From contig MQRK01248982.1 of the NCBI GenBank assembly GCA_001938485.1, forward strand, positions 1-64,000: DNA of 64,000 bases, read 5' to 3'. The first letter of the stretch is position 1; every line of letters starts with the position of its first letter. The notes under the pieces are model-generated. The model did no database searches. It was not told where the DNA came from and saw nothing but the letters and a program-made list of their open reading frames with translations. The stretch comes from Girardia tigrina (Eukaryota). Made by a program: the position numbers and the translations under genes. Positions 14,401-56,400 of the stretch are shown one piece after another.

Positions 14401-17400
14401 TGATCTCATTTAATAATGATTTCTGCTCATGTTGATTTCTTGTTTTTAATATAATTATTGGTGATTATATTACTACACAAATTCATTAGGACTCGTAAAA
14501 TAATTCTTATTAAAAATTTTAAATTATAAATAATATGTACTTATTTGTATTATAGATGAATTAATTTGATATTTTACGATAATCTAAATACAATTCTAAA
14601 ATAATTTGAAGAAATCAAATAAAAAAGTTAACTAATAAAAATTTTATTCGCATTTAAAAATTTGTTCTCAAATTCAAAAGAATTCGGACATTTAATAAAA
14701 ATTATAATATAAATGTAGGCAATGAATTATTTTAAATTCAATATGGATGATTAGTAAAAACACATGTAGTTATTATTGTTTAAATATTTCAGTCGATTAA
14801 ATTTTCGTTATTTTTAAAATATGGTTCGTGGAAAAAAGATGCATACGAAAATGCATGAGAAAATATTTGCCATGCATGTTAAAGGAAAATCAGTAAGGGA
14901 AATTTCAAGAATTTTAGAGATAAGTAAATCGGCGGTGTTCGATAACATTAAAAAAGCTAAATACCGTCTGAATAACTCATCGCCAAAGAATTCTGGACGA
15001 CCAAAGTTGACTTCCGCTACTGATAACCGGTATTTGAAGAGGTTAATTCCTCAATATCGTCGTGCTACTGTTCAAGAAATCAACGAGAAATGGAGTATGC
15101 AAACAGGCATTTCTTCTTCTCCGTCCACTTGTCTACGTCGAATACAGGATTTAAATTATTCATTCTACAAGGTAAGATTTTCTTAATGAAATATAAGCAT
15201 TGCGTAACACTTTTTTAAGTCTAAAAACAAACCGTTTCTGTCACCTATTCAAAAGAAAAAGATACTTGAATGGGCTCTTAATCATAGTAAATGGAGCCAA
15301 AATGATTGGAATAAAGTTATTTTTTCAGACGAATCTCGGTTTGAATTGTCTATGGGCCGAAATGGAAAATCGGTCTTAAGACATAGTACTGAGTCATTAC
15401 TTTATAGAGGGCACAATGAACTCTACAAAGTATACCGAGATATTAAGGGAAAGTCTCATCCCATCTATTACACAATATTTTGACAATGGAGATTTCATTT
15501 TTCAACAAGATGGAGCATCTTGTCATACTTCTAAATTTACAAAAACTTGGATGATGAAAAATAATGTCGTTCTGGACATGGCCTTCAGGAAGCCCAGATT
15601 TAAGTCCCATAGAGAATGCTTGGGCAATTATGAAAAAAACATCCTAAAAATGAAATTGATTTGAAGAATAAAATTTTAGCAATATGGAATAGTTTTCCCA
15701 TTGATAAATGTCAGGATTTATACAATTCAATGAATAGAAGAATGGAAGATGTCATGAAAGCAAAGGGCGATGTTACAAGATTTTAAATAGCAGATGTCCG
15801 AATTCTTTTGAATTTGAGAACAAATTTTTAAATGCGAATAAAATTTTTATTAGTTAACTTTTTTATTTGATTTCTTCAAATTATTTTAGAATTGTATTTA
15901 GATTATCGTAAAATATCAAATTAATTCATAATACAAATATTATTTATAAAACGATTTTAATTAATCGAATAATATTAATTAATATTTTGTTTAAAAATAA
16001 ACTTGTTAAAAAATTTTATTTATTTATTGTCTTGTGATGTAAAATGAATGAGATGAGTGAACATTTGATTAATAATTGATAAATAATGAATAAAAAAATT
16101 GTATACAAAATAGGAAAAGTTAAGTAACCTCAATTTTAAATATTTTTAATAATTTTTAATACTATTTTGATCATTGAATAAAATAAAATTGAACTCAAAT
16201 TTTTGTAATATTTTTCCTTAATAATATTATTTTGTAATAGTTTTTTTATTAAATATAATTAATAATTTTGAATTTTGCTACAACTTATTTAATATTGTAG
16301 CAAACCAATTTTCTTAATGCTCGTTTTAAACATAATCATTGTACATGTTTCAATCTTACATGTATCATCCTCATTAATTAAACAATTTTTAAATGTAAAA
16401 TAAAAAAACAAAAATGTTACATAAATAAATGCAGTAATTAACAATAGTACTTAATAATAAAATATATAATTAATAACAAGTACTTAATTACTGGTGATGA
16501 TAAATGTAAATCTAAGCATGCCAACAATAATATTTCAAAATATCTTTTTAATTAATTAATAATAATATTATGATTTATTGTTTAAAAATTTTAGACTTCA
16601 GCTTGATTGAATTGTATTTTGGTTTTAGGTTAGTACTTTTGTACCAGATGCGATCTTTGTTCTTCAATTAGTTACTGATAAAGAAGATAATCCACATTTT
16701 AATATGATATACGAAGTACTGAAAGATAAAACTGTCAATTATGTAAATGATGGAATGTTTTCTCTTCATCTCTCGAGTCCTGGTGACCATGAAATCAAGT
16801 TAATTTTCTTCATCAAAAGTCGATTAATGAACAAATAAAAAAAAATTTAGTAATGTTGGACTCTAATAAATAAATATAAATAAATTCTAAAATACTTTTT
16901 CAATTTTTGTTAATTGTTTTAAATTTTTATTTTAAGTAAATTATTTTTTTTTAATTATAATAACATTTATATCATTAAAATTAGTCAAAATATGTAATTA
17001 TTGGAAAACTAAATCTTTCATCTCAAGTAGTTGAAAACTTTTTGTAAGATTCAAAAAAGATATCAATAGTAAGAACATTGAAAGTGTATTCGAAAGCATT
17101 TTATAGTCAATGAAGAAATCCGAAAGATGTTGTAGTAAACAATTTACAAATAAAAAATATTAATATAACTACCACGGTTGCATAGTGGTTGTAGTGACCC
17201 AGTCAATTATTATATATAAATTATATATAGTAAATTATATATAAAATTATATATATATAAAACAATCGATAAAAGTAATCATTAATATTACTGTTTACAA
17301 TTATACTATATTGCCTGCGGGGCGTTTTCTTGTAAAATCGGTTCGTAAAGGAATTTTCTGCAAACCCAATCAATATTCCCCCTGAAAGTGCTCCTCTTCA

Positions 17401-23400: not shown

Positions 23401-26400
23401 ATTCGTTATATTGGAGTTGCGACAAAAGATCTATTCTTTTGTCACTCTATTCCTGTCAATGCTAGTTTGACAGATATGAAATTCAAAAGTGAAAAGGCTT
23501 AGCAATGCGTACAGGCAACACAGATCATTGGTTGGATAAATTTCAGAGTTGTTTTTTGAACCCTAATCTCAGACAAATATTAGGAATCAAGTTCATCCCA
23601 AAAAATGGCCAGTCTCCGGTAAAACTTTTAAATTTCATTAAAAGTCGTTTTATGAATCAAGAATTGTTCATTTTGATATGCAATAAGATGGGCAGTGAGC
23701 ACATACAGCTTCTGCTACAAATTGAAATTTGTTGAAAGTGCCTTGAAGTTTCTATTTAGATAAATCAGTTTTAACTTACGTGGGATACATCAATTGATTT
23801 AAAAAATTATGAAACTATAATCGATATTTAATCTCAAGTTGACGCTGACATGACATCAAAATCATATTTTAATAATTTGACAACAAAAGAAATAAAAATG
23901 TCATGCTGAAAAGTGAATAAGAGAATAGAAAAGCTCGTGTATAAGTCATTGACAATACATTCATCCAACAACAGAAGGATAGCATCGATCCATGGGAATC
24001 ATCCATCCTTCCCGTGTATGCAAACATGTTAGTTGCTTGGCTGTAATCCCATGAAATCCATTTTCGGGATGTGTTCAATTCAATTCGAACACTCACTTTC
24101 AATACTGTTTTAGTTTCATCTAAAATAATATCATTTGTAATTTATTGAACCTTGGTTCATTAATGTCATAGTGTTTGTCAGATTTTATCAGCTTTATTAA
24201 CAAAAATTAAATCAAGGTCAACATGGAACTTGGTTTAAAATTTTTTATAATATAAGACCCCTTAGATTTCATTAACTTTTTTAAAAGCATAATTTTTAAA
24301 AAAAATTATTAAAAAAAAGTATCGGTTGGTTGCAGCACGGATGTTGATGATGTGCTATTTGTTAAATTCCATCACAGAATTTAATAGATTCTGAAATTAA
24401 CAATCCAAACGGAACTGGATATATTCTATGTGGAATTTTTGATTCTGTGGAAATCATATATCTATGATGGTGGCAAATATGAACTAAGATCATATGGAAA
24501 TTATAAAAAAATGCATCCGTTTGTGCAAAATATGCTGTAAAGAAATACAATTTAGGTCCAATCTGCTTGATATTCTTGTAAAAAATTGCATTTCAGTTGA
24601 TTTTGAAGTAAATATTTGTTATTCATTTGTGTATCGTGAATTGTAGATGTAATAATTGAAATCATTAAAATCTGTGGAGATATATAATAATAATAGTAAT
24701 AATAATAATGATTATAATAATGATTATATATTGAACTTCCTCGGAATCTATTCACTTATTTGTCACAGTCTCTATTACATCAAATAGGTAACAGGTATAA
24801 ATTTAATGATGAAAGGAAATGTTTTACAATATTTTCTTTGTCATCTTAATATAATCTTCATGATGTTTGAAATTCATGTATTTTAAATCTGTGGTGCTCT
24901 GCCCAATGGTAATGAATATCACATTTCTGTTGAAAGTACATATATCGTTCCTCTGGATAAGTTTAATTAAAAAATGTATTATCAAATCTATAAAAATTAG
25001 CTTTTTTTCTACCAACACTAATAAAAAAGTTAACTGCAAATGGTTGACAATCAAATCTGATAAATTTTTCTTCATTATTTTTCATCTTTAATTTCATTTT
25101 ATTAAGAATAAATATTTTTCTTAAAATTATTTTTAATGATTATCTTATGCCATGTTATATTTCTTCCCATATTTATTTATATTTACAATATTTTATTTTA
25201 ATTTTGATATTTTCAGAAATCTATCCTGATATGAAAGTTTCTGATGCAAAAGCTTTTTTTAACAAACATAAAGATGTAGTACGACTGAAAGCCACAATTT
25301 TGATTCAAGATATTCCATCAGTGTATACAATATCCGATCCAATTAAGTCGCAAAGTGAGCTTGAATCATGTTGATCAGTTTATTAAGATCATTATCTCTT
25401 AGTTTCAAAAGAGAATAAAAACATAAAAATCAAACATTTTTCTCCAAAAGTTGTAGCCGAAATGGGAGAAGAATTGATTGTTGTTTTAGAGAAGAAAATA
25501 ACTAGTAAATATTTTTATATTGGATTGAAGGAAATGAATTTTTAAATTGAGTCTATATATTATTTCCTATTAATTATCATAATAAATCAGATTTCGTTAA
25601 TATAAAAAGTAGTTATTGACAAAATAGTGTTCTCTCAGAAGATTAACTCAGAAGAAATCATAATTTTATTTTCGTTTGTATTGTTTAACTAACTTTATAA
25701 TCAAATTGATTTCACAATTTTTAAGATACACTCCTTAAAATACAAGTGATTGAGGTAAGCCTCTAAAATTAGTCAATAAGAGTCATTTTAAACAATGTTC
25801 TATCCGCACTACATATCCAGTTATATAGAATTTGACTCTATCTATTCGACTATGAATGACAGTCAATTCAGTTTACCGTTTATTAAGGTCCATATACTTA
25901 AATAACTTTTCTCTTGCATATTCGTGAGTCCTAAATCAGCTACTTCATTTGTAATTGTGATATTTCACGAGAACCCGAAGCAGATGAGAACAAGTCATTA
26001 ATACTACTTCTACATTATATTCTTGTTTGACTTGTCTTTGATTTGATTGTCGCTTTCAGCCGTCTACCTGCTTTTTAACATTTGTTGCAGTTGTCAATAG
26101 AGCAATTGAATGATTTTCCTTCTTGAGTTTTGGTTTTCATATAGCGTGCTTTTCTGATGTGTTTGTTTAGTTCTTTCCATGAAACAATTCGGTTGTATGT
26201 ACTGGATTGTTTTAATGGTACCACGTAAAACGTCGAAAAAACATCGAAAATAAACATCAAATATAAAACGTCAAAAAAAAACGTGGAAAAAAACGTGGAA
26301 AAAAACGTGGAAAAAAACGTGGAAAAAACGTGGAAAAAAACGTGGAAAAAACGTGGAAAAAAAACGTGGAAAAAAACGTGGAAAAAAACGTGGAAAAAAC

Positions 26401-29400
26401 ATGGAAAAAAAACGTGGAAAAAAAACGTCGAAAAAAAAACGTCGAAAAAAAAACGTCGAATATGAAAAGTCGAAATTCTAAAACATCGAAAAAATAGTTT
26501 TAATAAAACATTAAATAAAATGATGTGTTATTAAATAGTGCTTATGTGAATAAATGAATAAATAAGTTAATGAAATTTCTAAATATACATAAATTATTTT
26601 TTTTGAAAAGGAACTTACTCTATACATATTTACTGGGTACGGATTCAATTAATTTTAAAATTTATGAAATCATATGATATTTTATTTTTTTATATTTATG
26701 TTGATGCATGTAGGTGATTGATATAGATTTCGTAAAATAACATTTTTTTTAAAAAAAGTTAGAATAATAATAAAACATATTTAATTAATTATAAAATTTC
26801 ATTTTTTAATTATAAAATTATTTTGATAAATAAAATTTTTAAAAAAAAATTTAGTATATTAATAAAACATAAATTATAAAACATATAATAAAAAACATAA
26901 AATGAACTTATAAGAATATACACCCGTGCTATAACAGCATTGACATTTATTGAAAGAAACATATTAGAAATGTTTTCAACTTCTTAAAATCAGGTGAGTC
27001 TTCCCCAAATTCCCTTTCAGAAATTTACTCATATTTTCACGAATATTATATCGGAACGGAACTTGATGAAATTTTAGGTAAGGTAAGTTTTCCATTGTAT
27101 TTATGTAATGCAAGAACACGTCTTTTTAATGATATTCTAAGAACTAATAATGCCTGTTGGGAGCGTTGTTGAGTTCATAAAATTTTTGAAGTTACAATCT
27201 TATCAAATTAATAATCAAACAATTACATTCCGTAAAATATTGTTATAGATATGTTAAAATAAGATTTTCAGAAATTTAATGTAAAAAATTAATTCATGTA
27301 AGAAATAAAATAAATTTACGGTAGGTTTATTAAAAGATTTCTTATAAAGAAAAAAGTTATTTTCAAATTTGATGAAAAATATTTAAGTGAAATAAAATCA
27401 AAACTAATATAAAGTTTAATATTTTATTTACGAAATGAAAGTAAACGAAATTGCGATTTTAAATTCTACTTTCACATATTATTAAATCCAAAGTAATTTT
27501 TAAATTTATTATAAAAACGAAATGAAAAAGCTATTGTATAGAATTGGGAAATTTAATTAAGAAATATGTAAATTTCAAGGTACAATAAAATTGAAATTTA
27601 ATAAAAGATGAAACAAAATCTTTGTGACAAAATTTTAATTCACTTTATAATTTTTTATTAAAAAAAGTATAGAATTTTAATTCGTAAAAAATACAATAAC
27701 CATATTTATATATTATATTTATATTATATTATTTATATTATATCATTATATTTATATCAATTATTATTTATAATGGTCTGTGTAAAAAGAAAGTGCAAAA
27801 GTTCCTCGGAAATATTTGTTTAAAAAAATTCAAATTTGTGGTAGAAATAAAGTTTTGTTTTCATGACAACGTCTTTTGATCAAGAACCCAATAATGCCAT
27901 TGAAGGATGGCACAATTCATTCAGAAATATATTTGGTAATTTGAATCCAACACTTAAAAATTTTATGCAGAAAGTAAAAGGAGAAAAAAAGAATTTAGGA
28001 GAAAAAAGAAATATGTTTTTCTGACGAAAAATTAATAACTTTTTTAATAGACCGAGCCAATAGAAATCCAGAAACATATATTTTGAAATTGGCTGGTTTT
28101 AATTATTATTAATAAATATTTTTCGACATTTTATTTTTCGGTGTTTTAACGCGTCACGGTTTTAATACGAGACTGCAGCATTTTTGGATAAGTAATATTC
28201 ACTTTTTAGAATCTTTCTGGAAACAATCTTTTGAGTGGTTTTTGAAAATTTCAATCCCTAGAATAGAAGCTGCTTCATCTATCATTTCTTTTGTTTCTTC
28301 TCTCCACTAAATTGCACCAAAAATCATGTCTTAATTTATGGGTTTTTTGATTAGTGGTTTCTATGAGCTATTAATATTTATACCTATGTGATTGCTTATT
28401 TATTATTACTTATGTTATGATCAGTGAAATGATTATTAAAATAGAAAAAGAAGCGAGCTTATTTATTTGAATTTTTGTACACAATGAACTTATTGGGTTC
28501 GAGATTAAAATCCAGATTCATTATTTGCAAACTTTATTTCTAACAAACAATGATTTTTTTAAACAAATTTCTGAGGAACAATGTTTCATTTTTAGCACAA
28601 TCAGATATCCTATTTGAAATATGAATATTGATATATAATTTTTGTTAATTTAAGTTTTATACTTTAAGTATAATAAATTATAACTTAAAATTATTTTTTA
28701 AAGAAAATGAAATCTCAATCTGTTTTTTTTATTTAATCATAACTTCTATTATAAATTGATTTTCTTAAACTATTGTTTATATTTATTCATTTTGACCAAA
28801 ATTAAATTATTCTAAATGTTAGTAATTAAAGTGCTAGGAAATTTTTGAAAGAAGGTTAAATTAAATATGTACAAATTAAAATTTTTATATAATTAAATAT
28901 GTAACATTAAAAAAAATAAATTACTAAAATTATGAAGATCTAATTAAATTGTTAATAATTTAAATTTTTTGAGAGTTTTAAATATAATAAAAGATTAAAA
29001 TGTATAATTTTTATATGTGGAACGATTTTTAAAAAACTAATAAAATTAAATGAAACGATTAAATATTTTAAATTGTTTTCGTATTTTAAAATTGATTTAT
29101 AAAAGTAATAAAAAATATCAAATATGAATATTTATAAGTATTTTTATTTATATCGGTTTAAGATTTATAAAACAAATTGTTTCTCAAAACAAATAATAAG
29201 TTTGTTTAAATAATAGATTTAAACATTTTTTTGTTATATAATAAAAGTTTTGATGTCTGAAATAATTCATATATTATATTAATAATTCCGACGATGTTCC
29301 AAGAACCTCTAATACTAAAAATTAATCTTTTACATAAAAACTTATTTAATAGTTCATTCTATTAAAAATTTATATTAATTAGTAAAACATTATTTTAACT

Positions 29401-38400: not shown

Positions 38401-41400
38401 TTAAATTAACAGAAAAATTTTCTTAAATATGTGAATTGTTATTATATTAATATATTTTGATGTTAAAAAAATGAATTCAGATATTGATGTCTATGTAATA
38501 TCTGAAATCAGATATTGATGTCAGATATTGATGACTATGTAACATTTGAATTTTTTATCATTGTCGTCGTATTGATGAAAGCAACGTATCATCGAATATT
38601 AAAAATATCGAATTATATTCCCGAATCGTTTTTGTTGTTGATTATTGGAACCATTTTCGGAGTGTTAGTTGAATTCATTTTTAAACGAGAAACTTATAAC
38701 TTTGCCGTTTACGATAAGTTATTTGTTTCCTACAAAGAAGAGTGAATTATGCTCTCAATGGGCTTAGTACACTGATGATGATTCACTGCGTAATCCTGAT
38801 ACTTCCGTCCGGTTCTTGGGGAAACTCAGGGATCGGGTAGAACACTTTTGGAAAAGATCAATCAATTTCTGAAATAGATATTTAACAGTTTTGTTTTAAT
38901 TTGCATATTGAAAGTCTACTTTAATTATTCGGAAGAAATCGAAGAACTCTTTATTACTAAAGTTGTTTGTTTCCGGTGGTTGATATTTCAATCGATAATT
39001 TTTTAACAGATTCTCCATCATCAATTGAAAATATAAAATATACAGAATCGTTTTTTTTAATCTAAAAAAGGCGACAGTTACAATCATTCGAGATATTTCC
39101 ATTTGATTCTCGAACATATGTCAATATTAAAGACAATATTATATAACGCTTCAGCTTACTCCTCTGTTAATTGTTTTCAGGTTGTTGCCACCCTTTGGGG
39201 ATATCTTTTTATTTTTCCCTCAGATTAAAAATTTTCTATATCATTAAAACTGAGATTTTCTTAACAGAAAATCACTTCTTGCAACTGTTTGTAAATTTCG
39301 GTGCGGTCAATATTTCTTAGAAGAAACTTGATAACACTATTATACTTGATTCCAATAAAGTCCTGTTACACAACAAAATAGTTTTCTGTGATATATATAA
39401 CTGTACATGTACTATCCACATCGTTGCATACAATATAATATGATAACATTGTGGTTGTTGATATACATTAAATTATAGAATATTCTAAAGACTTAATTGA
39501 CCACACAACACGACTGCTAGTTTAATTTAGAGGATTTTAACCACTTAACACTAGGCTACGAATTAACTCGTCAGATCTTTATCGTACAAAAATGTTTTTA
39601 TTTAAAAAATATTCGTATATTAAAAAATTAGAAATTTATATATATTATTGTTATTTTATTTTTATTCTCTATTTTAAATAATAAAATTATGAAAAAAATA
39701 TTTTTACTTGATGAAAATCCTGAAATTCACTGTTAAACATTATTTGAAACATACGTGGTACGATCCATAAGTCCTTAGACTCCACAAGAAAGCAATGTCC
39801 AATCAACTTTATTTTTTCAGAATCAGTAAATGACATCAAAGTAAATCATTTCTCAATGTATGAGCTGTGTACATCAACACACTTGCACCAGAGAACAACA
39901 AGCTCAGAGAACGCATTTTTGTAAAAATTTGGAGGCGAAGAATTGAGAATATCAATGAATTTCACCTTGAGAACATCAACTGAATGAAAGTGGATATCTT
40001 TCAAATGTTTCTTTAGGTGTTCAAACAACACAAAATCACTTGAGGCTATGCCAGGGCTATAGGGGGGTGGGTGGGGAACCAAATGAAAATCCCAGTCATC
40101 CACAGCAGTCAAAGTTGCTCGCAAAGTGTGAATGGGTGCATTGTCTTGAAGGAGCCACAAGGGATCCCTCTTGGCTTCCTACGAGACTTTCTCATATCGC
40201 AAAGTAATTCAACATAATACTCACTATTCATTGTCAGTCCTTTCTCAAGGAAATCAATTTTAATAATGCCATAGGAATCCCAGAACACAGTCAGCATTGC
40301 TACTCGCTTGTGCGAGGTGCCACTTCGAAGTTTTTGGGGAGCACTTTCATAGGGGAAGCACCACTCAGAAGATTGACGCTTGCTCTCAGGCACATACCAG
40401 CTCACCAGGGTTTTATCTTGTGTAACGATGTTGTTGATGAAGCGATCACCATGAGTGCGAAGCAACTTCAAATTGTCAGTGCGACACTGCAATCGTTTGT
40501 CGCACATTTCACCGGATAGGAATCGCGGAACAAAACGTGAACACAGTTTACGAATTCAAAATGATTGCAGAATATCATTTGTAGAATGGTAGCTGATGGA
40601 TAGACGCTGTGCAAGTTCACGGATGCGTATTCATCTGTCTTCCGACACGATCTTCATGCACAAATCACTTTTCCCGGGTAAAATTTCACACGGTCTTCCT
40701 GATCTCTGAGCATCAAAAACGGATTGTCGGTCACGTTTAAAGTTTCTGATCCAATTATACACTGTTGCACGTGATCAGCACTGGTCACTGTAAGCTTCCT
40801 GCAACTGCTGCAAAATATTGCAGCTTTTAGTATTGCGCAGGAGCAGAAATTTTATCACGCTGCGATATTCGACGTTACTGTCCATGTCTACAGTAAAAAG
40901 TGAAATAATGGCTGTACGCACCACTCATACACACAGGTTGGATATGGTGAGTCATATCTGTAACCAATGATAGCTCATCTATTTATAGTATCAACGGCAT
41001 ATACGTCATAATCTTATTTATCAACGATTCTAAGGACTTAGGAATCGCAACACGTAGAACGCATCCTAATATTCCAACAAGATCTGATTACTTCTTTACT
41101 GAAGTACGAAGAACAAGGAAACTTTAAAAACATTCATTTCGTTTACAAGGTTCTTGAATTAAATACAGATTTCATTTCATTTTATACGGCTTTTGTCTTA
41201 CAAAGAACGTTTTTAAAATTTTACAATGCAAACTTTACTTTTTTTCACGTTTTTTGTAATGTTTTTCGTAGAACGAATCTTCGGTGGAATAAGTCTAATT
41301 ATCGTACAATTTATAATTTAATTTAAACAACAACAGCGTGACACTCGAGAGTACATGTATTTTTATAATTTATATTTTCATTATTTTGGTTTATATTAAT

Positions 41401-44400
41401 AATATTGACATGAAACATAATTTGTGTAATTGATGCAATAACTTGACATAATCTATTTTATCATTCTTTTTCAATTAAGGTGTAGCTACAAAGAAGATCT
41501 TCAGTGAAGTGGCTCGAATTGGTCATGACTTTGCCTTTGGGAAGACATCATCAGATTTGTTCGAAAGAATAGAAAATCAATTACCAGTTGTTTTTACTTT
41601 GCAGGATGATGTCGGTGATACGTAAGCTTATGCCATATTTATATAAAATTTTTAGTTTGAATCATTTTATTTAAATTTGGCTATTTTTTAAAAGAAATCT
41701 TAAGTATCTTTTTTAGATATTAGATGATAATAAATTTTTCACAAAGATTTCTCGACAGCTCTCCCGAATATTGATGATTTTAAAATATTTTGGCATAAAT
41801 CCGGTATTAATTGTTCTGCATTCACCATCTGAATCGGTCTGAATTTATTGTCATAGTGAGTCATGTTGGTATGATTCTGCATTTAAGAATCATTCAAATT
41901 AGAATTTTCAATCATGTCAAAAATGAAAATTTCCCAAGCAAAAGTCTTTGGTAAAATTCAAAAGGTGGAATTAGAAATAAATTTATTAGATAATACAAAA
42001 CCTGAAGTCAAATCATATAGTACATTATTAAAAGATGATGACTTAATTTATCAACAAAAAGAGAATTATCAAAGGTAGTGACTGATTTCAGTGATGTTAT
42101 AGCTACTCATGAAGTCGATTTTGGGGATGTACGAATAGTGGAACACGCTATCTTCACTACAAATGAAAGACCTATTAAGCAAAGAGTATATTTAGCTCCA
42201 CCAAAGATACAAGAAGAGATAAAGAGACAAACCAAACTATTATTAGAGGAAAAGTCATAAGAGCAAGCACCTCACCATGGTCATCATCAATTGTTCCTGT
42301 TAAGAAAAATGATGGAGAAATTCGCATGTGTATGGATTATTTGACACTAAATATCGTTACAAAAAGAATTATCTATCATCTACCAAAAGTTCAAGAGATG
42401 TTCGATAAATTGGGGAATGCAAATATTGTACTAAGCTAGACTCAAATAAAGGTTTTTACCAAGTAAAAGTTAAAGATTCAGATATTAAAAAAAGTGCATT
42501 TACTATTAGAGAAGAATTACAAAAGTTTATGAAATGCCATTCGAACTAAGTCACTTTTCAACGTACTATGAATGCAACTTTAAAGGACATGTTTTACGTG
42601 ATAGTGTATATCTACGATGTAGTAATTAAATCAAAAACCTGTGAGCAACAAAAAGATACTATCGATGTATTTTAAAAACTGAAATATTGTTCTGCATTCA
42701 CCACCTGAATCGGTCTGAATTCATTGTCATAGTGAGTCATGTTAGTATGATTCTGCATGCAAAGTAAAGTAATTGGCGATAAAGTAATGAATATTATGCA
42801 ATGTCTTTTAATAGAAAGCAGAATCATACAAATTTGTATAATCTAATATACCGCAAAGTTATTTTAATAACCGCGTTTCAAATTGTAATGATACAGCAGC
42901 TAAGCCAATTAAAAACTATGTCGAATTTTACTACTCACAGTATTTCATGGGCCATGTCTTCACATTATTGTGCCTTGTTTACCTCACCTCAAGTTAAGAT
43001 ACATGAGAAATTCCTAGAATCAGATTCATTTAAAGAAATCCAATCCATAATCTATAAATTAGAAGGATCTATCAGGTCAAATAAAGACATGAAAAAATAA
43101 AGACGAATTCACATATGGGCATTTGTGATATTTAGTGCTGTATTATTTTCGTTGAGTTCATTAATGATATGGCACATTATAAGTCAATATAAATATACAA
43201 ACGAAACATACGGCTTTAAACTTATATCGTACTTTTGGAAATACCTGCCAGGAATGTTCGTGAATCTAACACAGGTGTTTTTAGTCGTAAGTGCATTGAG
43301 ATTTTAAGTTTCACTGTAAGTTTTTGTTTTCACTTCTATATTTTGCAGATGGTCGAGTCAAATTGGTTAATCAAAAATTTGGTCGAATCTGGACTATCAA
43401 ACTGACAAAGAAAAATCTAAAAATAATTTGATTCATTCTGTGAATTTTATGAAAAAATTTTTTCGTTAATTAAAAAAAAAAGAAATCGATGTATGTAAAA
43501 TGTTTGGTTAGATCGATTGTGTACAAAATAATTTTGAAAATTAAAACTTTTGAATATCGAATTTGTTTTAAATTGAATAGAAAATAATTGTGACAATTTC
43601 AAATAATGAATTTTAAATTTACTACAATAGTTGATGTAAAGAATCTAAATTTCCATCATGGTATCGAACCGTGCTTGGGGTTAAATGGGCCCATTCATAC
43701 GAGAAGTCGACAGCAATTACTCAAACGATTAGTCGAAATTCGCATTGATTTATTCCTCGTTCGCGGCTGTTCGGGAGGTGTTGTGAGTGGTTGTTTGCTT
43801 GGTCATTGTCTTGGAGGTGTGTTCGGGGAGTCGTGTTTCGGCGTTGGAGGTGTTACTGAATTGTCCGACAGAAGTGAACATCTGGGCCCATAGAGACGCC
43901 TTCGGACTCCAGGATACACAATACGCATTCGATTTCTGATTTGTAATATCGATTTTGTTTTCTTTCACACAACACAGTGAGTCCGTATCGTTCAAAACCA
44001 TTAAAAACGACTCTTTCTAATTTGGATGCCACCGCAAATCGACCAACTGGCTCTCAGTATTCGGTTTCTATTCACAAAATCTCGATTTTCCACTCTCCAG
44101 CAGCGATCTCTCGACATGGAACAGCCCTACAGTCGCCAATCGACCATCATCGGTCACCAAAGCGACCAGCAGAATCGACTCATTGCAATTGAACTCGATC
44201 CAGGCGACATTCAATTGGAATTTGATCGAGAAAATCAGATCGACACTCACGAGTTTGTCTTTCGAGTCGACCGATTCAACACTCGCTCTCGTACGAGAAG
44301 ATACAGCAGAAATTCACATCGTTGTTGGCGATCGACGCCAATAATCCGGCCCGACAATCGATTGCATTATATCGGATGTTTTTCGTGTATTTAGTCGATG

Positions 44401-47400
44401 ACGGTTTTAATGGATGAAGCGTTTGAAAATTAACGTTTATCGAATTCGATTTGTCGTTAAATCTTTTGAATCTTTCACAGAATATTTTAACCATTTCAAT
44501 ATCGATTTTTAAATTGATTGATTCACATTTCACTTTGTAAGAATTAATCGTGATGAGATAATTTTCTCTAAAAGCATTTTGCTTTCTATTTAAATCATTG
44601 TAAGTTTCATTCAACACCGACATTCTTTGATCATACAGAAACACTGCCGTTTATTTTATTTCTATTTAAATTTTGATTTAAAATCGATTCGAGTTTAATA
44701 ATATCGACGAGAAGAATAGGCACATCGAAAGTCGTATCATTCAATGTTTTTACAATTTCAATATTTGAGGTTTTTCTCAACATCGCGATTAACACAATTC
44801 AGCTTCCAGAAAAGAAATTCACTTTTTAATCAATTCAAAACGTTATTAAGTCACGTATCGCATTTATTTTCATCAATCAAATACACACTCGTATTTACAT
44901 GTATCTCAATTTGCTCCAACCAAACAAAACTCAAGGTCATAAAAAAAATCATTTTTCAATCTCAAAAAAATTAAAATATTACAATTAAACTGGATTTTGT
45001 CCTTTTTAATTACAATTATCAAAAATTTTCCTTTATAAAAAAACCAATTACAAAATTTGATAAATATATATATATATATATATATAATTTTTTTCTACCT
45101 TTAATTTTTAAATTTTAATAAAAATTAAATATATATATTTTCTCCTTTATCAATTCGTAACAGGAGGCTAATTGTCGGTTTTGCGCGATGGTAGTGCTAT
45201 TTTTGGTGCGGTTAGCTACGATGAATTGACAAATAATTATGAAAAATTCATAAACACAAGTCAAGACTTCCCAATTTTTATGAAAATCGACTCCGAAAAA
45301 ATATTTTTAGTTAACTTGAAACCTCAATTGACAATTGAAAATATCAAAGTAAAAATTCATAAAAGGAAAGAATTTCCACAAACTCACAAAAATTGTGTAT
45401 CAATGGAAAACTTTTACAAGATCAAAAGACAATAAATGAGAGTCGTGTAACTAAGAACGATACACTCTTCCTTCTGTTCGGCGTCAAAGGAGGCATGGAA
45501 ATAGACGATGACGAATTGGACGAAAAAAATGTTCTCCCGAAGAAGTTCAAAGGGCAAATTAAATCTGATAAGAATTAAATTTGGACTCTTTATTGCCACC
45601 AGAAAAAATCAGTACAACAATTGATTTGTATAATCAATATTATAATGAAGTTATTAAAGATTACGAATCCATAGCAATTAATGCTAAACGATTGAAATAG
45701 AAAGAATACAACTCATAAATTGAGAGAGCTGATAAAATTAGAAGAAGAAAAATGAAGAAATATTGACATTGCTTATCAAAAATTCAAAAATAATTCAGGA
45801 AAAATCAAAGAGGATAATTAAATTTAGATGGTGGAAAAGAGAATTTTCATCAAATTCCAAGCAGTCGCCTTACGCACATTTTCCAGAAATGTGAGTACGA
45901 TAAATGGATGAAGACCTTTGAAGCTTGTATTAACTCCTCAAAAATGTCTGAGGTAGCAATCAAATTATGCTTGATCAATGCTTTTCCAGTGAGATGATAC
46001 CGAACAATCCGTTTATTATACTTACCATTCAAATTGGTCTTGAAAAAAATATCCGATAAATAAATGTTAGATAGAGTTGAGGAAGCAGAAAATGTTCATA
46101 AGGAGACTGAGTTTGAATTAGCAGAAAAAAAAGAATAAGTGAAGATCAAAATAAATGGTTTAAATCGCATATAGAATTAAGGTAGGAAAAATAATTAAAG
46201 CAAAAGATTCAATATTAAAAGCAAATCCTATGATTGCAAAAGACAGACTGTTGAGAAGCAACAGCATGATAATGAAATCTGAGTATCTTCCTTGGAATTT
46301 ACGATATCCGTTAATACTATCTAATGAAAGTCCAATAACGAAATTAATAGTGGAACATGTTCATGAAGAATTTCTTCACTGTGCTGGCGTTAATCAACAG
46401 TATTGTTAATTATCAGAAAGATTTTAGTTCCTGAAAATGCGAAAATTTTTAAAAGAATATCAAAAGTTTTGCAAGATCTGTTCTAGAAAATCAGCTAAGG
46501 GAATTTCTCAAATAATGGATGATATACCGGAATTTCGCTTTCGAGAGCAGTTAAGAGCATTTGATAAAATCGCGATTGGTTATCTTGTCCAATATACACT
46601 AAACAAGGACGAGGAAGGGCGAAGAACAAACATATGTCTGTTTCATCACTTGTCTTCAGAGTAGGGGAATTCATATTCTTATAAGAGCCTTAAAAGATTC
46701 ATCACCAGAAGAGGAAAATCATCTATCATAGTTTCTGATAATGGAGGAAATTTTCGGAGAATAAACAGAGAAATTATGGAGATAAAACAAGGCACTTATG
46801 CAGCGTTAAAAAGGGCTGAATTGCGGAGAGATAAAATGGATATTAAATCCTGCTATAGCACCCCATATCGGAGGAGTTTATGAATACCCATTCAAAACAG
46901 CAAAGAAGGGTTTTTTTGCGGGAATCAATAAACCATAAAAAATAGATAAATAATAAAATCAAAACAGTAAATTAAAACAAAATAATCGAAAACGATCATG
47001 AATTATAAAAGAAGATGAGCGTAGAACAGGAGCAGTCATAATAAAATGTGATATAATAGTAGAAAATACATTAAAAATGATATAAAAAGTGTAAAATTTC
47101 GATAAAAAGAGAATAGTTACAAGTCAATAATCAATAAAATGGAAATGATGTACGAAAAATTTCATAAAATTAGTATCAAATTCAAAATAATTACGCGAAT
47201 AAAATAAAGTAAAAAGTTTGAAATTCTGTCAATAAATGGCCAAAAAATAACAAAAATGAAAGAAAAATAATGAGAGCGGGCACAGTGATTGTTCGGCCGC
47301 GACGCTCTAGCGTTTAAGGGCAGACTCTGGGTTAGAGGGATAAACAGAATCGTATCTCACATTTTTTCGGTCCATGATACACCAGGTCAATTCTCGAATC

Positions 47401-50400
47401 GGTCAACTGTTATCGGATTTGATTGCAGAAATTCTTCCACTCCTCTAAATCGCAAGATTGGGAGCAAGAAACACCGCCTGGGCTGTGGGCTCGAAATTGG
47501 CATTGGAGGAATTATCAATTTCCTCTATACAATCCGCGATGGATTCACCAAGTATGAAATCAGAATGAGTTCCCTCACGATAAAGATTGGAGAGTGTCTA
47601 AGACGCGTGGCAATTCATCAAGCTCTTCGTTCGAAAACCATGAGTTGCGTGACTGAGGTTCAATATGTATCTCCACGTAAACTCTGGCACAAATTCTCGA
47701 ACTATTCCAGTATTGATTTACATTTATAATCGAATAAAGAATTTGAATTCAGCAACATTCCAAAGTATTTTTCGTGACAATTGCGCAAGCACACCAACAA
47801 GCAGTCCCAATAACTGCTAGTCGACACTTGGAATCGATCGAGATTTTTAAGCAATTTCTCAAAAAAATTGAAGAGATAAATTCAAATTCTGACTAATAAA
47901 TTTTCTGAATATTTTTGACTATAATGTACAATTTATTGATATCTAATTCAGTGTTGATTCGCTGATCTTTGAGAAATGTAACAATCTTCATCTCTCGAAG
48001 ATATTCATATAAAAATGGTGGAAAAATATTGCAATTTATTTTCATTTTAAAGTTGCCAGCAATATTGCTAATCTCAACAACAACAAAGAAAATTTCAGCG
48101 CAAAGATTTATTTCTTTCACTTCATATAAACAAACAACAATCAAGTACATATATCAAAAGTTACGTAATTTAATTCGATTAAACAACGCTCGCCAAATCA
48201 ATTTTTTGATCATAATAATAACAAAAACACAATAATGTCGCACGATTCACACCAAGCCAAAAGATTGATTTAACATTTCTTTTTTTTGATAATCGTTATC
48301 AATTAAAATAGGATACAAATAAAATGAAAATAAAACGGTAAGAATGCAACGAGACGAAATGGTGAAATTAAAATAAAATAAAATTATATGTTAATGAATG
48401 GATAAGATGAATATTAGTAAAGAAAAAAATGTTTTAATGAAGATTATATTATAGAATAATGAACGACAACGAGCAGCCAGGAACTTCCAGTGTAGTAATT
48501 CATGACGTATTTGAAACCGAATTAAACTCAGACGATGAGGATCAGACAAATCAAACATCGCGCAACAATAATCGAGAGATACCAAAATATATGACCCTAT
48601 GGAGGATGGAAAGGCGAACCAAAGGCGAATACATAATCATAATGTACAACAGAGCAACTAACAGTCTATATGAAGATCGCACGGAGGTCAATTTTCGTTT
48701 TGAAGTATGCGAAATACGGGGAACTCGAATGTTAATGCTACATCCAAGAGATTGGCCAAGGGGAGCCGAAGCCGAGGGTTATTCATTATTCGCAGCATGG
48801 ATGGAACCTACAAAAGTCCGAGAAGTATGCCAAACTCTGATAGGAATGCGATGGAAGACTTTCAGAGATTTTCATATCAGCTGGAATAGTCGATATAGCA
48901 TAATAGAAACGAACCAGAGTTGAAGAACACTGACGATTGTCGCGACAAACGACGACAAAGAGGAAATCATCAAAAATATAGGAGGAATCAAGTACGAACG
49001 CAAATCACAAATATGGATGCGGTGTAATCAAGAAAATCGTTTCCGAGTACAAATAGGGAATCTGAAGGGAGATAATTACGCTGAATTTTGGATTGTGAAC
49101 TCCATATTATATCACTCTGTTGAGGAACAGTTATTACCGACTATGAGAGGCTTAGCATGGAACAATACTGAGAGGGTAATCAAACATCAAAGAATACAAG
49201 GACCGTTATACGTGACATGCACTAATCGGCGACGAAGGCAGAGTCAAGAGATGTCACACCTTCAAGTTGATGAGGATTTCGAAGGTACCATATACGGAGT
49301 ATGCGAACAATCCTTGAACAAAAAGAAAAGAAACAATGAACTTGAAACAATCCGAGAATACTCACTGCTAATCCCTGACAGGCCAGATATCAATCGAACA
49401 GTGCCATACTACGAGTATGGGTTGTACAAACCAACACATTGACAACAATACACTTCAGGAAAAGGACCGAAGTTGGAGAACTATTTGTATAAGACCTACA
49501 ACTTATCAATATCCGAAGCAATACTGACAAAAGAATATATAAAACACGCTGAGGAATCATCCGATCAGTTAGTACAACAATGGCTCGAGCAGAAAAGAGC
49601 GCAGACTAGGCCACAGACTTTTCGGAATACAACAACACACCACAGATTAAAAACTACCAGAACCAGTATTGAGGAAAAGATAATAAATGGAGTCATAGCA
49701 ACCGCAATAGTAATCGCAGTAGTCGGCGTTGGTATAATGATAGCCATATTAAAACACTCAAATCGAACACATCTCAGATACACCAAAGGAAAAGGTATGA
49801 ACCCGGCCACGTTGATGCTTGGAATGAGGACTATAATGACGATAGAAATCATACCAAAAAATGAAGCGGCAGAATACCAATTTATTTGGGGAACAATAAA
49901 AGTGCAATTCGGGAGAACGTATATAAAATCAAAAGCGGAAATAGTGTTAGAAGACCCCCAAATACCAGAATGGATCTGCTTAGCCGGATTAGATCACGGA
50001 TTACGAATTCCATTGTTCAAAACTGACTTCACCACAGAATATGGCAACATCAGCGGTAATAGTAGCGTTACAACTGACGCCCACAGGAGTACCCACCAGT
50101 GAACGCAGAGCACTAGAGATAAATTGGTATACTAGTGTAATCGTATATGATGACAAAATAGAATGGGATATGACACCTTTTTATCTGAATAGTGAGTGGT
50201 TGGTTAAACTATTATACCCAGAAAGTACATTCAACCTTAAAAAGCCCCATCATCAACATGCAGTCCAAGTTACAGCCGACGAAGTACAATATACCGCTAG
50301 TCTAAGTGAGCACGAAAAGGCATGGATAAACTTCAGAGACGATTATGACGGACAATGGGAACCAAATGCTGGAATTGGAAAGTATCGTTTGAGCTTAAGA

Positions 50401-53400
50401 AACGCACGTGAAAATAGCCAGACGCAATTATCGGTATTGATAACAAGAAAAATCGACAGTGTGGAGTACAGCACTTCCTACCAGGAATATGTCATCAATA
50501 AAGGACAAGTAACAACGACCAATTCTCGAAGCCTATTAAACTCAACATATTCGCTACATCAATACAACCTACCATCTTATGAACTATTACCAAAGATGAC
50601 CGAATTATTTAGCGTAAATAGGTGTGAAGAACAAAAGCTGACAGAAAACAAAGAACGAGAGGATATCGACAAGCATATACGAAGAACGAGGATCAACGAT
50701 TACGAAATCCGATACACAACACAACGACTCGGGGTAAGACGAACAAACCCCAACAAACAGTTATCAATGATCGTTTTATGCGCAACAAGAGACATGCAAG
50801 AAATACACCACTCCAACGACCCGTGGGTGTATTGTCGAATGTCACCCGATCTGATCAGAACGGGCATACTATCAATCCACATGGAAAGGAAAGCCGTTAC
50901 TATCGAGAAGCATAACGAATTCGTGATACAAAACCATACATTATATTACCCAGTGAAAGTACGAATGAAATCGACGTTGTACCGAGAATACTACTATAAG
51001 TACCATCCGGTACTACGAGAGCACATCAAAGGGCTGAGAAGTTTTCAAGACGTAGCCAATGGACAAGCAAATAGACTAAAGGGCAGTATGATCCTTTCCT
51101 GCAATACTTTTACCAAAAAATATCAACAAGCTTTCCGAGGTCGACCCAGATCATTAATTGCAGAATACCGAATATACTTATACGCACCAAGGAGAATACC
51201 GATCCGAATAATGACAATGTACACCACACAATATAACGGCGATTACGTGGCAGCATATTACCAAGAATATCTAATAACGGGTGATGAAATACGAATTGTG
51301 CCTCCACAACACGAGGACGAGATCTATGAACAGAATCACAAGTTGTTAACGCCAATGGATATCTTTTCCCACGAATAAAACCAGCATTACGAGCGAGGCC
51401 GCTGATTATCGAACCGATAACGGAGAGAGCAGTGATACCGACAATAACAAGTATAGAGTCGACACGAAATGCCACGGCAAAGTCACTCAAAGAAACAGCA
51501 AAGATAGCGGCATTAACAAGTAAATTTATAACATTAATCGTTCTTACAGCTGCCGGCATACTAATCCTGATCTGTATCAATACATGTCTATGTTACCGAC
51601 AATGGCAGCGAAAGAAGAAAAAAGCCAGAACCAAAAACTCACCGGTGGGCGACAATACGAGGCCCCAGAGGGTCCCGACAACCTGATCCCAGAATCTATA
51701 AAACAAGAGATCGAATACGATGCGCAAGCGCGAATCGAAAGAAAGTTGCGCGACATCATCGCAAGAGTGCCGAACTCAAACGAGTTCCCCGATGTGCTAC
51801 GAGAGACGGCGGAACTAAATGGCTACAGTTACGCAGAAATCCGTCCACCAATACGAACTACGAGCGCAATGTCGCCCCAAATGAAACGAGCGCTGGCGGA
51901 CCCTTACTGCGTCACCAGCTACTGATGAGAGAAATTTCATGAAAGTAACACTGTAAATATGACAAAAATGTGATCGATAGTGAATATTGATAAACTGGTA
52001 AATTGAACTCGTTATGTATTTTTTGTGAAATATTAGTGTAGATGATTGACTGAAAACCTTGCTTTACCGTAGCTGACACTTATCTTGTATCTTGTGTGAC
52101 CTTATCTTTCACTTATATTTTTATGTTTTATTCTGTTGTAAAATCTCGAGTCGAGATTTCAATGGTACCCGAAGGAATGTTGCGGTCCGTTATAGATCCC
52201 TTACAAAACATTAGGTAACAAATACATTACATAAAGATCAAGAACTAAGACAATTAGGTTTAATACATGTATTTGATAGTATTAAAAACAAAATAATACA
52301 CATTCTTTACGGCGTGGCACCCGTGGAACCCTTTGCGACCCCAAGGAACGGTATTGAGATGTTTTGGAGGCTGAAATAACCATGTGAATGAGAAAAAATA
52401 CCAAGTCATGTCAGGGCTTACCTAGTGACAGAAATCGAGTAGCTGGCCCTCTTCGGAGAGGTCTTCGCGCCCCGACTCCGTTTTTTCAATCTACGAGCTG
52501 GTGATAATTTCTTGAGCAGAGATATACACCTGTAAAGTTAGAAGAATTAATTAATAAATACAAAGATTAATTAAAAAACTTACGTGAGTCAGCAAAAAAT
52601 CCACGAAGAATCACCGCGTGATTATTCACGAGATTAGTCCGTGATTCACAAACCTTGTGACACTGGCGGCCTGCAAACATACAAGCATCAGTTTCTATAT
52701 AAAATCGAAAACTTACAAAAAATTTTAGAGACATACCAACGAATGCACCCAGACAATGACAGTAATTGACCAATTGATATTGTAGAAATTGTGGAATGAT
52801 TCGTTGGCGAACTAGGATTGGACGGGGCCGAGTGACGAGATGGCAGACCCGTACTATAAAAATTACAATTAATTTCAGAATAATGCACAAATTTTGACGC
52901 ACAAGAATTTAACGCGAAAGAAAAATCATTGACATTTTATTGAGAATAACCGAAACTAGAGAACCCTTGAACGAACGACAAACGCCACACTGAGACGAGA
53001 GAACAGTTAACGACTGCACAACGAACTAGCGAGAAGCGACATAAATTCCAAACGAGAGATTCCGAATCCTCATTACTATTGACAATTCGAGTTGCCGATA
53101 GATCATCCTTTTTATTTTTCTTATTTTATTGTTTACGTTTTATTCGGTTTAATTATCCTAAATATATGTATTGTAAATATCGATTTCCTTTCATAATTGA
53201 CTTTCACTAACCTTTAGTCTGTAACAAGACTCCCCGAAAAATGTCGAGGCGACACACCAACTAGTTATGATTTTTTAACTTGAGTCAGCAGTACAGTGTC
53301 AGTCTACTGAAGCTAAGTAGCTAGACCTGCTAATATATAGATAATAGCAACTTATAAATAGCGATAAATTATAATAACTTTTGTTAACTCCATAATACTC

Positions 53401-56400
53401 CGATAAATTATTAGTTCTATGGTAATTTGTCGATTGAACATGACGTAAAGTCAGTTAACAGAGGGAAGTATTAATTAATGTGAATGTAAATAGAAAGACC
53501 TGCTGTTACTATTTTAATGTTAATGTGTTTCATTTAAGTTGTATATATCGCATAGTTTAAATTGGGAAAGAATATTCTGAACATAAACTTCCCTTCACTC
53601 TGAAGTCACTCTCCTTTAAATCAGCAGCTTCTCCGGAGAATTTACAGCTGGCGATATTGTATCTTACCTTCCAACGATCAATTAAAGAACGGTTAATCTG
53701 TCGGTCAGAATCAGCGCCTAAAACTTACGTGCTTTTTCCAAGAGAATTGAGCTTGTAGGGCTGGTGACATTCTTTTCCCGCATTGTTCTAAACGACAAGA
53801 TAAATGCTTAGTCAACGTCCTCGAAAGTTGATTTTATTTGACAGTGTGTAGTTATGTTGATGCCGCCACTTTAAAATCTTTGCAAAATATTCAGTTTTTT
53901 AGACTAGATTTTGCTCACGATGCTGCGATCGATGGCATACTCGGTTGCAATATCTTTCATCGCTTTACTGCTTCTAAACTGTTGTAGGATTACATATTTC
54001 TGCTATAAAATCAAATCATTCCTCTTACGTTTGCTTGCCATTAGTACAGTGTGATGTAAGTTGTGATGTGTCTTGCTTATTCAACCACTGAGCATCATAA
54101 AACAGCAGAATATCCAAGTGTTTCTTTATTTTACCATGGCAACAATTGGTCTTTGTCATACCACGATTCACTAACCACTTAATCCACTTAACTTAACATA
54201 CCCACCCACTGTACTATTAATCTGGAACAAAGGAGGCGTCATGACAGAATAACATGTGTTATAAAACGAGTTGTGCCAGTAACCGAGCAGAACTCACAGT
54301 AAACTCGGGCTTCCAAAGTTCATGCCACGAAACCCCATGTTATTAATCGGGTTCTCCTATTAACCGAGGTACTATTAATCGAGTTCTACTGTAGAAAGAT
54401 TATAAATAAAATAATGAAACAATCTCAAAATAGTATCTCTGAATTTTCTATATACACCCATAATACAGAAGATATTTAGAGTAGTTTAATTAATTCGAAG
54501 AATAATCGTTGTAAGATTATGTTGTGGGATCGCTGAAAATGGGTCAGCGATTCGCTTAGAGTACTAGAAAACTTGGATCGAAAAATAGTATTATGCAGAA
54601 AAAATATTGTTTGGATAAAGTTTGGTTGGATTACCAGAAGCAGTTTTTATTAATATTTAACAGATTGTGTTTTCGCTTTCTTAACTTATGATCATTTGAA
54701 TATATTAATTTCAAATTATTAATATTTTAAATGTCCTTAATTTGACTCATGAATCACTAGAATTCTAGGGTTTCATTGTTTTTTATTTGTTAATTGTTAA
54801 TCATAATGTTTGTTTATTTACTCATAAATTAATTTTAAGACAATTAGTATCATTTAAAAATATTACAGACCACTCAATAACGCCATCCTAAAAGGTAATG
54901 TTGATAATGCTCGAAAGATTCTGCACATAGTTCAAAAGCATTGTGAATGGGCACTGGATTTAGTTAATACTAGCGGGCATTCTGCATTAATACTGGCACC
55001 AGCTTGTGATGTACCACCAGATTTTATTGAAGATCTTCTGAAAGCTGGCTGCAAGCTTGACCTTTGGGATGATACTGGCAAATCGGCAATTATTTACGCA
55101 ATTGAATATCGAAATACACAAGCATTAGAAGTGTTACTGAATCACGGTACCTACTCAATCTTTGCTCGTCATTCAATGATTGTTTCTACAATTTAGTGAA
55201 AAAACTTAATTTGACAAGTCTTCTAAGTCGATATCAAACGTGCTATTATACACCTTTGCAAATAGCTTTGATGCATGGCTTCAAAACTGGCGTTCAAATG
55301 TTATTGGAGCTAAAGGACTGCAATGGAAAATACATGGTCGATGTAAATGAAACTGGTTTGATGAATGCTGAGTCAGCACTCCATATCGCTGTTAGTCACG
55401 AGTGTGACATAGAAATGATAGAAATGCTTCTATCTCGTCCAGATTGTGAGAATTCTGTCCAATTATTCTTTTATCATAATGTCTATTATTTAATTTTTAG
55501 TTTTTTATTTATATTTTAATTAGTTTTTATAATTTTTCCATTCTTTTTATTAGCTTACTTTCTATATATACTGTCAGACCTCTCGTATCTGTATCTCTTC
55601 TAACCGTCACTTTCTCATTCCATCGCGATTTTCATTTGACGGAGCTTCAAATCGCCATTGAAAACTATCTCTCAATCCGTCACACTTTCGAAAATATACA
55701 GGTCTAACTGTATATATATATATATATATATATATAATTATCTTCAAACTTGGTACATTTACTCATTCTCGATGACAATAAATGATTATCGAAAATTTGA
55801 TCAAAAAAACTTCTTAAGGTCTCAAAATGGGAAAAAAACACAGAATTCGGAGTTCCAGAACAATATTAATTTAAAAAGATCTTATAAATTATAAGTAGAT
55901 CATATTAATTTTTTGTGTTTTTTAAATCATTTTTTTAATTAGAACTTTGTTGGCAAAGTAGATTTCTGTCTGCATAAAGAATAAATATAAAAAAATTATT
56001 TTTTTAATAATTCTGAACACTTTCTCAAATTTCTTAAATTTTAGTGTTTTAATTTGCTCAATTCTGATAATACTTTTTCCTTTCCATATTAAATATTGAT
56101 ATATTCAGACATAATAGAAAAAGTTTGTTGTAAAATAAGATAAAAGAAATTAATTTACGGATATCTTGTCCCATTAAAATATACGATCCTGTTGAGAAAC
56201 GTACCCATTTTAATCAAATAAACTTTTATTCATTAAATTCGGGCCGTTAAATTTCATGAGTATTTTCAGAACGAACGTAAATTATTTTATCAAAAATGTT
56301 TTCTTTTTATTTGTTATTTTCAAAAATTTTGAAAATGTCATTTGAAAAGTAATAGTCAATTTTGTTTCCTCTTATAAATAATTTTTAGATTTGTTTTCCT

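Follow-up and report, generated by a model that had tools for sequence, protein, structure and literature searches.

Does the ubiquitin-like domain (Ubl) that stands before a retrotransposon Gag remnant in Girardia tigrina belong to the element, and what would it do there? The question arises from the window, the whole stretch of 64,000 nucleotides analysed here (contig MQRK01248982.1, positions 1 to 64,000), in which an earlier note had recognised a full-length Ubl ending in Gly-Gly (GG) ahead of a BEL-type Gag remnant. Both were recovered. The Ubl lies at 45268-45494 on the plus strand, begins FPIF, ends LFGVKGG and is matched in both halves by Pfam ubiquitin (PF00240; E 0.004 and 3.7e-6); the Gly-Gly/Met junction at 45489-45497 (plus strand), where VKGG is followed by MEIDDD, is a putative deubiquitinase cut site. 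Downstream on the same strand, a Gag remnant (45495-46030; helical N-terminal domain and start of DUF1759), traced through several breaks by tblastn with the natural copy L030, is joined by a deletion to the end of Pol with a BEL integrase remnant (46031-46917), the rest of Gag, the protease, reverse transcriptase (RT) and RNase H having been lost. The proposed reading of the Ubl on into Gag survived in part: the junction is real and in frame in the family, but in the window copy three-frame translation reveals a frameshift near 45363-45375 that splits the Ubl, and the Gag reading is broken again soon afterwards. The window element is a decayed, dead BEL/Pao copy.

The 5' boundary had to be redrawn. 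The gtaaca at 45157-45162, taken in the earlier note for the BEL LTR end, closes a nested solo-LTR-like insert of another family (43851-45162; TGTTAC..GTAACA, 1312 bp) that is flanked by GGAGG target duplications at 43846-43850 and 45163-45167 and is absent from the sister copy L168, which is continuous across the empty site. This insert has 52 matches in the genome, and each of five further copies examined showed TG..CA ends and a 5-bp duplication (one mismatched, one within a TA run); its parent element was not found. The same repeat is nested in L037, L143 and L155, and in L016 (757-1320) it contains a Nup159/Nup214 beta-propeller-like fragment (Pfam E 3.8e-5, below cut-off). The BEL 5' LTR spans 43426-43655 on the plus strand (start approximate), ends ..TTTCCA, matches the 5' end of L168 continuously and, at 75%, the LTR found downstream of Gag in the sister copies L169 and L170; no 3' LTR of the window copy was found. 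A degenerate primer-binding site, TGGTATCGAACC.., follows at 43659-43676 (plus strand), where L168 has TGGTATCAGACC; 'tttttggtgcgg' near 45200 was rejected as primer site, the true one lying at 43659 beside the BEL LTR. The Ubl therefore does not directly follow the LTR, whose end and primer site are at ~43655-43676, but is preceded by a leader of ~115 codons in the window subfamily. Part 1 of this leader (43606-43850, plus strand, within an open frame at 43594-43893) starts at an ATG within the end of the LTR and continues across the primer site, and part 2 (45163-45267, plus strand) is an 82% match to L168 and L009 upstream of their Ubl. The Ubl is not the N-terminal leader that had been supposed but an internal cassette, with either a leader or captured cargo in front of it. 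A single frame, interrupted by nothing but stops, takes in leader, Ubl, GG and Gag start in L168.

The window holds further features. A separate multi-copy repeat (47272-48310, 82-90% matches) lies directly after the BEL remnant and is followed by an A-rich region (48441-51925) with long plus-strand frames (160, 172, 219, 461 aa and more) and two hydrophobic segments. These frames, which gave no usable Pfam or Atlas match, found no support as the env of the BEL element, because a different repeat begins at 47272 and the 3' LTR of the full-length sister L031 comes soon after integrase; they may belong to another multi-copy element as an envelope-like gene. Elsewhere we noted a 1374-bp element with perfect 136-bp inverted ends (14556-15929), a 12-bp tandem array (26241-26460), a mariner-like transposase remnant (39846-40555), a gypsy-like RT start between 73-bp repeats (42042-42439) and ankyrin-repeat exons (54858-55519).

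The suggestion that the Ubl has long resided in this BEL/Pao family was borne out; other copies have the same cassette with its GG fused in frame to Gag. Searches of the genome with the Ubl-Gag junction returned at least 42 matches at the DNA level (40 of 220 candidates scored) and at least 150 at the protein level (best 150 of 1982 scored); the Ubl is thus not missing from other copies, and the junction is not due to chance. One member of this family (family A), L031, is bounded by 317-bp LTRs that are 95.6% identical, with 5-bp flanks bearing one mismatch, and encloses the Ubl, Gag, RT and integrase. What precedes the Ubl varies within the family: a short leader in the window copy and L168, a second coiled coil in L013, L018 and L030, a coiled coil with HSP90 scraps in the L031 group, a longer HSP90 piece in L044 (Pfam 7.8e-12) and cadherin repeats at 11 loci, the subfamilies having DNA in common only from about ubiquitin residue 26 onward. 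A frame start inside the LTR end that runs through the primer site (FGSR / HGIE motif) was seen in L031 (2467-2500), L047, L174 and the window (43606-43680). Intact natural Ubl copies match Pfam ubiquitin with E values down to 1e-20, and the predicted model of L042 has a Ubl beta-grasp (pLDDT ~88-90, rmsd 0.8-1.0 Å to ubiquitin), a coil at LKGG and then the Gag helices, the pTM being low (0.41), as would be seen with two domains that are not linked. Contigs from sequencing runs under other coded species labels span the GG junction (X3 record 27, X10 record 13), and another spans the HSP90-Ubl junction (X10 record 12); that these runs are RNA is a guess, and such contigs are all that bears on expression.

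The earlier note was right to see a family feature but underestimated its reach, as all nine BEL families that we sampled, along with external relatives, have the Ub-Gag layout. In a survey anchored on Gag (PF03564; best 150 of 1330 scored), ubiquitin and the Gag start were both present at 42 of 59 loci examined, while 17 were unscorable, two ending at a contig edge and 15 having no probe-matched Gag start owing to gaps, truncations or families missed by the probes. A readable Gag start without ubiquitin occurred at 0 of the 59, a figure to be read with the bias against Ub-less relatives of Gag probes and an external profile built from Ub-bearing families. A ubiquitin search of the genome likewise uncovered many near-perfect ubiquitins in long frames (best 150 of 3445 scored), and most of the 20 such loci fetched were other BEL families. 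Together these loci establish a layout common to all nine families, leader/cargo-Ub-LxGG-Gag-Pol, with the junctions LGLKGG then ME (family A), LRLCGG then SS (B), LRLRGG then SN/SD (C and D), LRLQGG then ME (E), GKLLGG then MD (F), LRIRGG then ME (G), LRLKGG then MD (H) and LRLRGG then SE (I). Compared with a single family-B copy, the RTs of families A, C, D, G, H and I mostly show 36-48% identity; E and F contributed no RT row, and the RT tree, a quick search, does not place family G. Longer HSP90 pieces and the junctions LHINGG then ID and LRLNGG then MD mark L186, L187 and P0165 as a likely tenth family.

Several peculiarities of individual families were recorded. The 3' LTR of the family F copies L122, L123, L137, L142, L145 and L152 begins ~2.2 kb after the Gag start, too short a distance for RT and integrase, so that family F may be non-autonomous, Gag-bearing and still in possession of its Ubl-GG. 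Direct-repeat pairs in the family B copies L086, L088, L089 and L130 are 98-100% identical, a value that assembly gaps may inflate, which suggests recent insertions of this family with near-authentic ubiquitin. Gag of families A, B and D contains zf-CCCH (Pfam) zinc fingers (L010, L079, L089, L116, P0016, P0164), and that of family C and P0021 other Cys/His patterns. Finally, in L051 (847-1779) and L050 a perfect ubiquitin is followed in the same frame by a degenerate second unit and then a CCHC knuckle, perhaps the product of another retroelement's fusion to a ubiquitin gene.

The element is BEL/Pao by its LTRs, DUF1759, Peptidase_A17 and domain order. LTR pairs were also found in families B, C and F, PF03564 (DUF1759) in A, B and D, and PF05380 (Peptidase_A17) in L044 (E 3.8e-38), L082, L085 and L089; the order is RT, Peptidase_A17, integrase along the frames of L085, protease followed by RT and Peptidase_A17 in L082, and Gag, RT, integrase in L031. 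The RTs are 38-48% identical to external Peptidase_A17-bearing polyproteins and were placed among these in a tree built without a gypsy/copia outgroup. LTRs, an 18-nt primer site, a 5-bp target duplication, one continuous frame and the order Gag (DUF1759)-protease-RT-Peptidase_A17 region-integrase are all as in Belpaoviridae (PMC8742986). Not shared with that family are the captured host fragments and Ub/Ubl-LxGG cassette in front of Gag, the frame start in the LTR end, the CCCH fingers (A, B, D) and the primer site. In copies of A, C, D, E and F this 18-nt site, TGGTAGCAGAGCGTGGTT, is complementary to the 3' end of an initiator-Met-like tRNA and is matched by truncated copies of such a tRNA, with a CAT anticodon, at their 3' end; a complete gene for the primer tRNA was not found by ARAGORN or Rfam. 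One truncated copy with an encoded CCA end lies near a 5.8S rRNA fragment (L192, ~1460-1524). Belpaoviridae typically use tRNA-Arg or tRNA-Gly (PMC8742986), to neither of which the site corresponds, and we take it as a variant that does not exclude the elements from BEL/Pao.

Among the best 150 external Gag relatives, six had a ubiquitin match and five of these end in GG, the tail of the sixth (P0025) being LKEG; P0016 begins at ..KLKGG then SE, and many other external relatives with a full N-terminus have a Met start and no ubiquitin. Word-indexed protein searches gave 11, 2 and 3 matches, with ubiquitin and DUF1759 together only in P0001 and P0165. External P0023 has the order HSP90 piece-Ub-GG-Gag and no match above 44% in this genome, and the layout is therefore present in other organisms. 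In a midpoint-rooted Gag tree of 41 chosen rows, again with a profile from Ub-bearing families, 25 Ub-bearing rows stood apart from 16 Ub-less rows (split 100/99).

Host polyubiquitin, ubiquitin-ribosomal fusions and FAU/FUBI-S30 are precursors that follow the same Ub-GG-then-X logic, and the element ubiquitins are 34% to 97% identical to host ubiquitin, with 34% in family F, 49% in A and 51% in G and H. Young element ubiquitins were traced to one GC-rich three-unit host polyubiquitin gene (L053): the start of family B ubiquitin is 95-98% like host unit h2, that of C and D is 91-96% like h4, and L085 has an additional upstream unit with 97% identity to h3, against 72-83% for the other units. 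The third-position GC of this donor is 0.62-0.70 versus 0.17-0.32 in other ubiquitin genes, and upstream of it, in L185 (same gene), are nGAAn/nTTCn repeats that we take to be heat-shock-element-like. Unlike polyubiquitin, host FUBI is the source of no element Ubl; a FAU/FUBI origin of the most diverged one (family F) was rejected because its ubiquitin scores beat its FUBI scores, as they do for every element Ubl (117-359 versus 25-57). Judged by these identities, several families contain nearly authentic, recently re-captured ubiquitin. Turnover of the domain is established by family D, where fresh and old ubiquitins sit on the same Gag lineages (L116/L144, L084/L154) and ubiquitin was therefore replaced independently of Gag.

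Other host sequences have been captured as well. HSP90 pieces adjoin ubiquitin in families A, B, D and E and in external P0023; those of the four families mostly match host DNA at 81-94% identity (72% for one older piece), differ in their breakpoints, and are partial and riddled with deletions. Identity to the host genome marks the ubiquitin and HSP90 pieces as host-derived. At the family D junction an HSP90 piece (..EEYSVQ) passes into ubiquitin (KESTL..) at a short likeness between the two mRNAs, GAGTACAGCGTCCAG versus GATTACAACATCCAG, and this microhomology fits template switching as the putative mechanism. Family F has an LRR cargo between primer site and ubiquitin, L082 an HSP70 cargo whose exact position is not fixed, and pieces of PRMT, Vac14 and RPB10 are found still further upstream, the first two before the primer site. 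Because Vac14 and RPB10 pieces also occur downstream of Gag in other copies, they likely lie in LTRs. The HSP70, LRR, PRMT, Vac14 and RPB10 cargo is in frame with ubiquitin in the copies seen, and open frames of 360-478 codons run through LTR-borne cargo into ubiquitin (L116, L072, L076).

From these sequences we consider it probable that the element makes one polyprotein which a host deubiquitinase cuts after GG, freeing Gag with a defined N-terminus from whatever has been captured upstream. Translation would start upstream, often inside the LTR end, and proceed through the primer site; the folded Ubl would then be cut at GG, as in polyubiquitin or the pestivirus strain BVDV CP Rit. Such a cut would uncouple Gag from everything upstream, and in-frame scraps of host mRNA would be tolerated; scraps of abundant mRNAs could be picked up by template switching during reverse transcription, and ubiquitin could be refreshed from co-packaged polyubiquitin mRNA. 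We propose that the varied cargo and the refreshed ubiquitin arise from this tolerance and from the co-packaging of abundant mRNAs. A cleavable fusion should have a beta-grasp fold, an LxGG in frame with its partner and a next residue other than Pro, all of which are found here (with IRGG in family G), and the authentic R72/R74 tail, which is replaced by G72/K74 in the window family. In the L042 model the tail forms a coil that links two separate domains, which also speaks for cleavage.

Conservation of the fold and tail was established over 12 diverged lineages (mean 57% identity to host ubiquitin; B and C were dropped as near-identical to it), in which G76 is kept in 12/12, G75 and L73 in 11/12 each, and the core residues as well. 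A naive probability of 3e-6 for this pattern was discarded, as glycines are often conserved and the lineages are related. R72 (8/12) and R74 (6/12) are less constant; the R72/R74 tail is intact in C, D, G and I and changed to G72/K74 in A and K72/L74 in F. Recognition of the A and F tails by deubiquitinases that read R72/R74 is therefore uncertain. The Ile44 patch, the surface read by most ubiquitin-binding domains, is poorly kept (I44 5/12, H68 5/12, V70 4/12), and K48 and K63 remain in 9/12 and 8/12. These counts bear on the possibility that the Ubl stays on Gag as a module for ubiquitin-binding or ESCRT recruitment, as a folding aid or as a means of tuning Gag turnover. The maintained fold, K48 and K63 and the departure of the family A tail from RLRGG would suit such a role, and passages of PMC10144533 relate that ubiquitin on retroviral Gag aids budding; but a retained module should hardly have the Ile44 patch among its least conserved surfaces and the GG tail, needless in an uncut fusion, among its most conserved parts, and very different cargo would remain on the capsid protein. 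We regard this explanation as unlikely.

Cleavage after GG also agrees with the residues around the junction. The residue after GG is, at the family level, M (A, E, F, G, H) or S (B, C, D, I) and never Pro, and M before E/D or a bare S mirrors normal N-terminal processing. In families B, C and D the first 19 residues after GG include no Met, and Met1 of ubiquitin has given way to another residue in part of D and in representatives of A, E, F, G, H and I; translation should therefore start upstream, while the Met right after GG in five families makes internal initiation possible there. In two-unit C/D copies, the upstream unit ends GS/GN in 7/7, probably through one inherited event, and the Gag-proximal unit keeps GG in 6/7. 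Overall, 8 of 86 copies have a broken GG (of 105 probe-matched loci, 19 were left out as duplicates or truncated); each break is confined to a single copy, and their frequency is about that expected from neutral decay of dead copies. The codons used for GG vary from family to family (GGAGGC, GGAGGA, GGTGGA), and family A Ubl versus host ubiquitin has a pS of at least 0.74 (near saturation) and a pN of ~0.30. Within families, selection on the Ubl (omega of shared versus singleton changes) was significant in none, A (0.41/0.78, p=0.11), B (0.14/0.45, p=0.15) and E (0.26/0.49, p=0.21) being in the expected direction, F giving 0.48/0.49 and A-cadherin 1.40/0.53 on few changes; the same test on Gag was significant in A and F. 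It is with this null result that one may argue for ubiquitin as a tolerated relic, a recombination hot spot by its likeness to abundant polyubiquitin mRNA whose GG is kept only by refreshment, Gag either starting at the post-GG Met or being freed by the element's own protease. The refreshment and module swaps seen in family D and the common DNA of family A from about residue 26 favour this as well, but families F, A, G and H, though far from host ubiquitin and equipped with their own GG codons and changed residues 72/74, have kept L73, G75, G76 and the core, and B, C and D have no nearby Met. We judge the relic idea improbable, marginally more so than a retained module.

Cleavage might still occur for the sake of a different product, if the upstream Ubl or cargo-Ubl, notably the HSP90 piece, affected the host, say by decoying ubiquitin enzymes or by countering silencing. 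The HSP90 pieces next to ubiquitin in four families and P0023 and the 360-478-codon frames could be read in this way, as could the omega of the family B HSP90 piece (shared 0.23 versus 0.64, p=0.04), but a low value here can come from re-capture of host sequence, the pieces are partial and deletion-riddled, omega of other cargo is near neutral (A-coil 0.95, F 1.07, cadherin 0.62), and cargo varies even inside family A, down to the ~115 codons of the window subfamily; we give this possibility less credence than either of the preceding ones. An independent host ubiquitin pseudogene that landed before the window copy, conceivable in a genome with 3445 ubiquitin-like candidates, is refuted for practical purposes by the same in-frame junction across nine families and external proteins and within LTR-bounded elements such as L031.

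The favoured explanation, release of Gag by a host deubiquitinase, has a precedent in cytopathogenic BVDV CP Rit, in which, according to the relevant passages of PMC8310069, an S27a piece plus ubiquitin is cut by host hydrolases to yield an authentic viral N-terminus, as the putative cut here would for Gag. In both cases host mRNA pieces have been acquired, in BVDV via RNA recombination, and a non-ubiquitin scrap lies upstream of ubiquitin; BVDV differs in that these are individual variant strains with near-authentic ubiquitin and documented cleavage (same passages), whereas here the arrangement is fixed and clade-wide in an LTR retrotransposon, with Ubls down to 34% identity and repeatedly refreshed. 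The planarian Ty3/gypsy element Burro, as portrayed in sections of PMC6431247, is likewise an LTR polyprotein with a Ubi2/SUMO-like motif and many host-like domains, but it is a gypsy element with an N-terminal Gag and the motif deep in the polyprotein between MATH and BCL2, and those sections propose no GG cut for it. The ICTV Belpaoviridae profile makes no mention of ubiquitin (PMC8742986), nor is the word used anywhere in the main text on BEL/Pao of PMC3118150. We found no description of a Ub-capped BEL Gag in the literature covered, subscription journals, Repbase and GyDB being outside its scope, and some Repbase/GyDB entries may already note ubiquitin. Non-LTR elements linked to ubiquitin genes are perhaps also known.

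Tentatively, and a little short of an even chance, we suggest that these elements form an ancient BEL/Pao clade in which a host-cut ubiquitin junction is obligatory in Gag maturation and the 5' end is an exchangeable slot for host mRNA, a standing platform for gene capture. We are just as guarded in suggesting that this slot mainly takes up stress-induced HSP90, HSP70 and polyubiquitin, and that its contents pass continually from family to family and are renewed from the host. If true, a retrotransposon lineage would depend on host deubiquitinases for capsid maturation, a new form of host dependence and a possible control point, and a pestivirus oddity would become a stable evolutionary strategy. 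The clade would also be a record, in dated layers, of co-packaged mRNAs and template-switch capture, with a visible HSP90-ubiquitin microhomology junction. Its diverged tails (LKGG, LCGG, LQGG, LLGG, IRGG) are a natural substrate panel for deubiquitinase specificity, and many 'ubiquitin' and 'HSP90' matches in this genome are to be annotated as parts of transposons.
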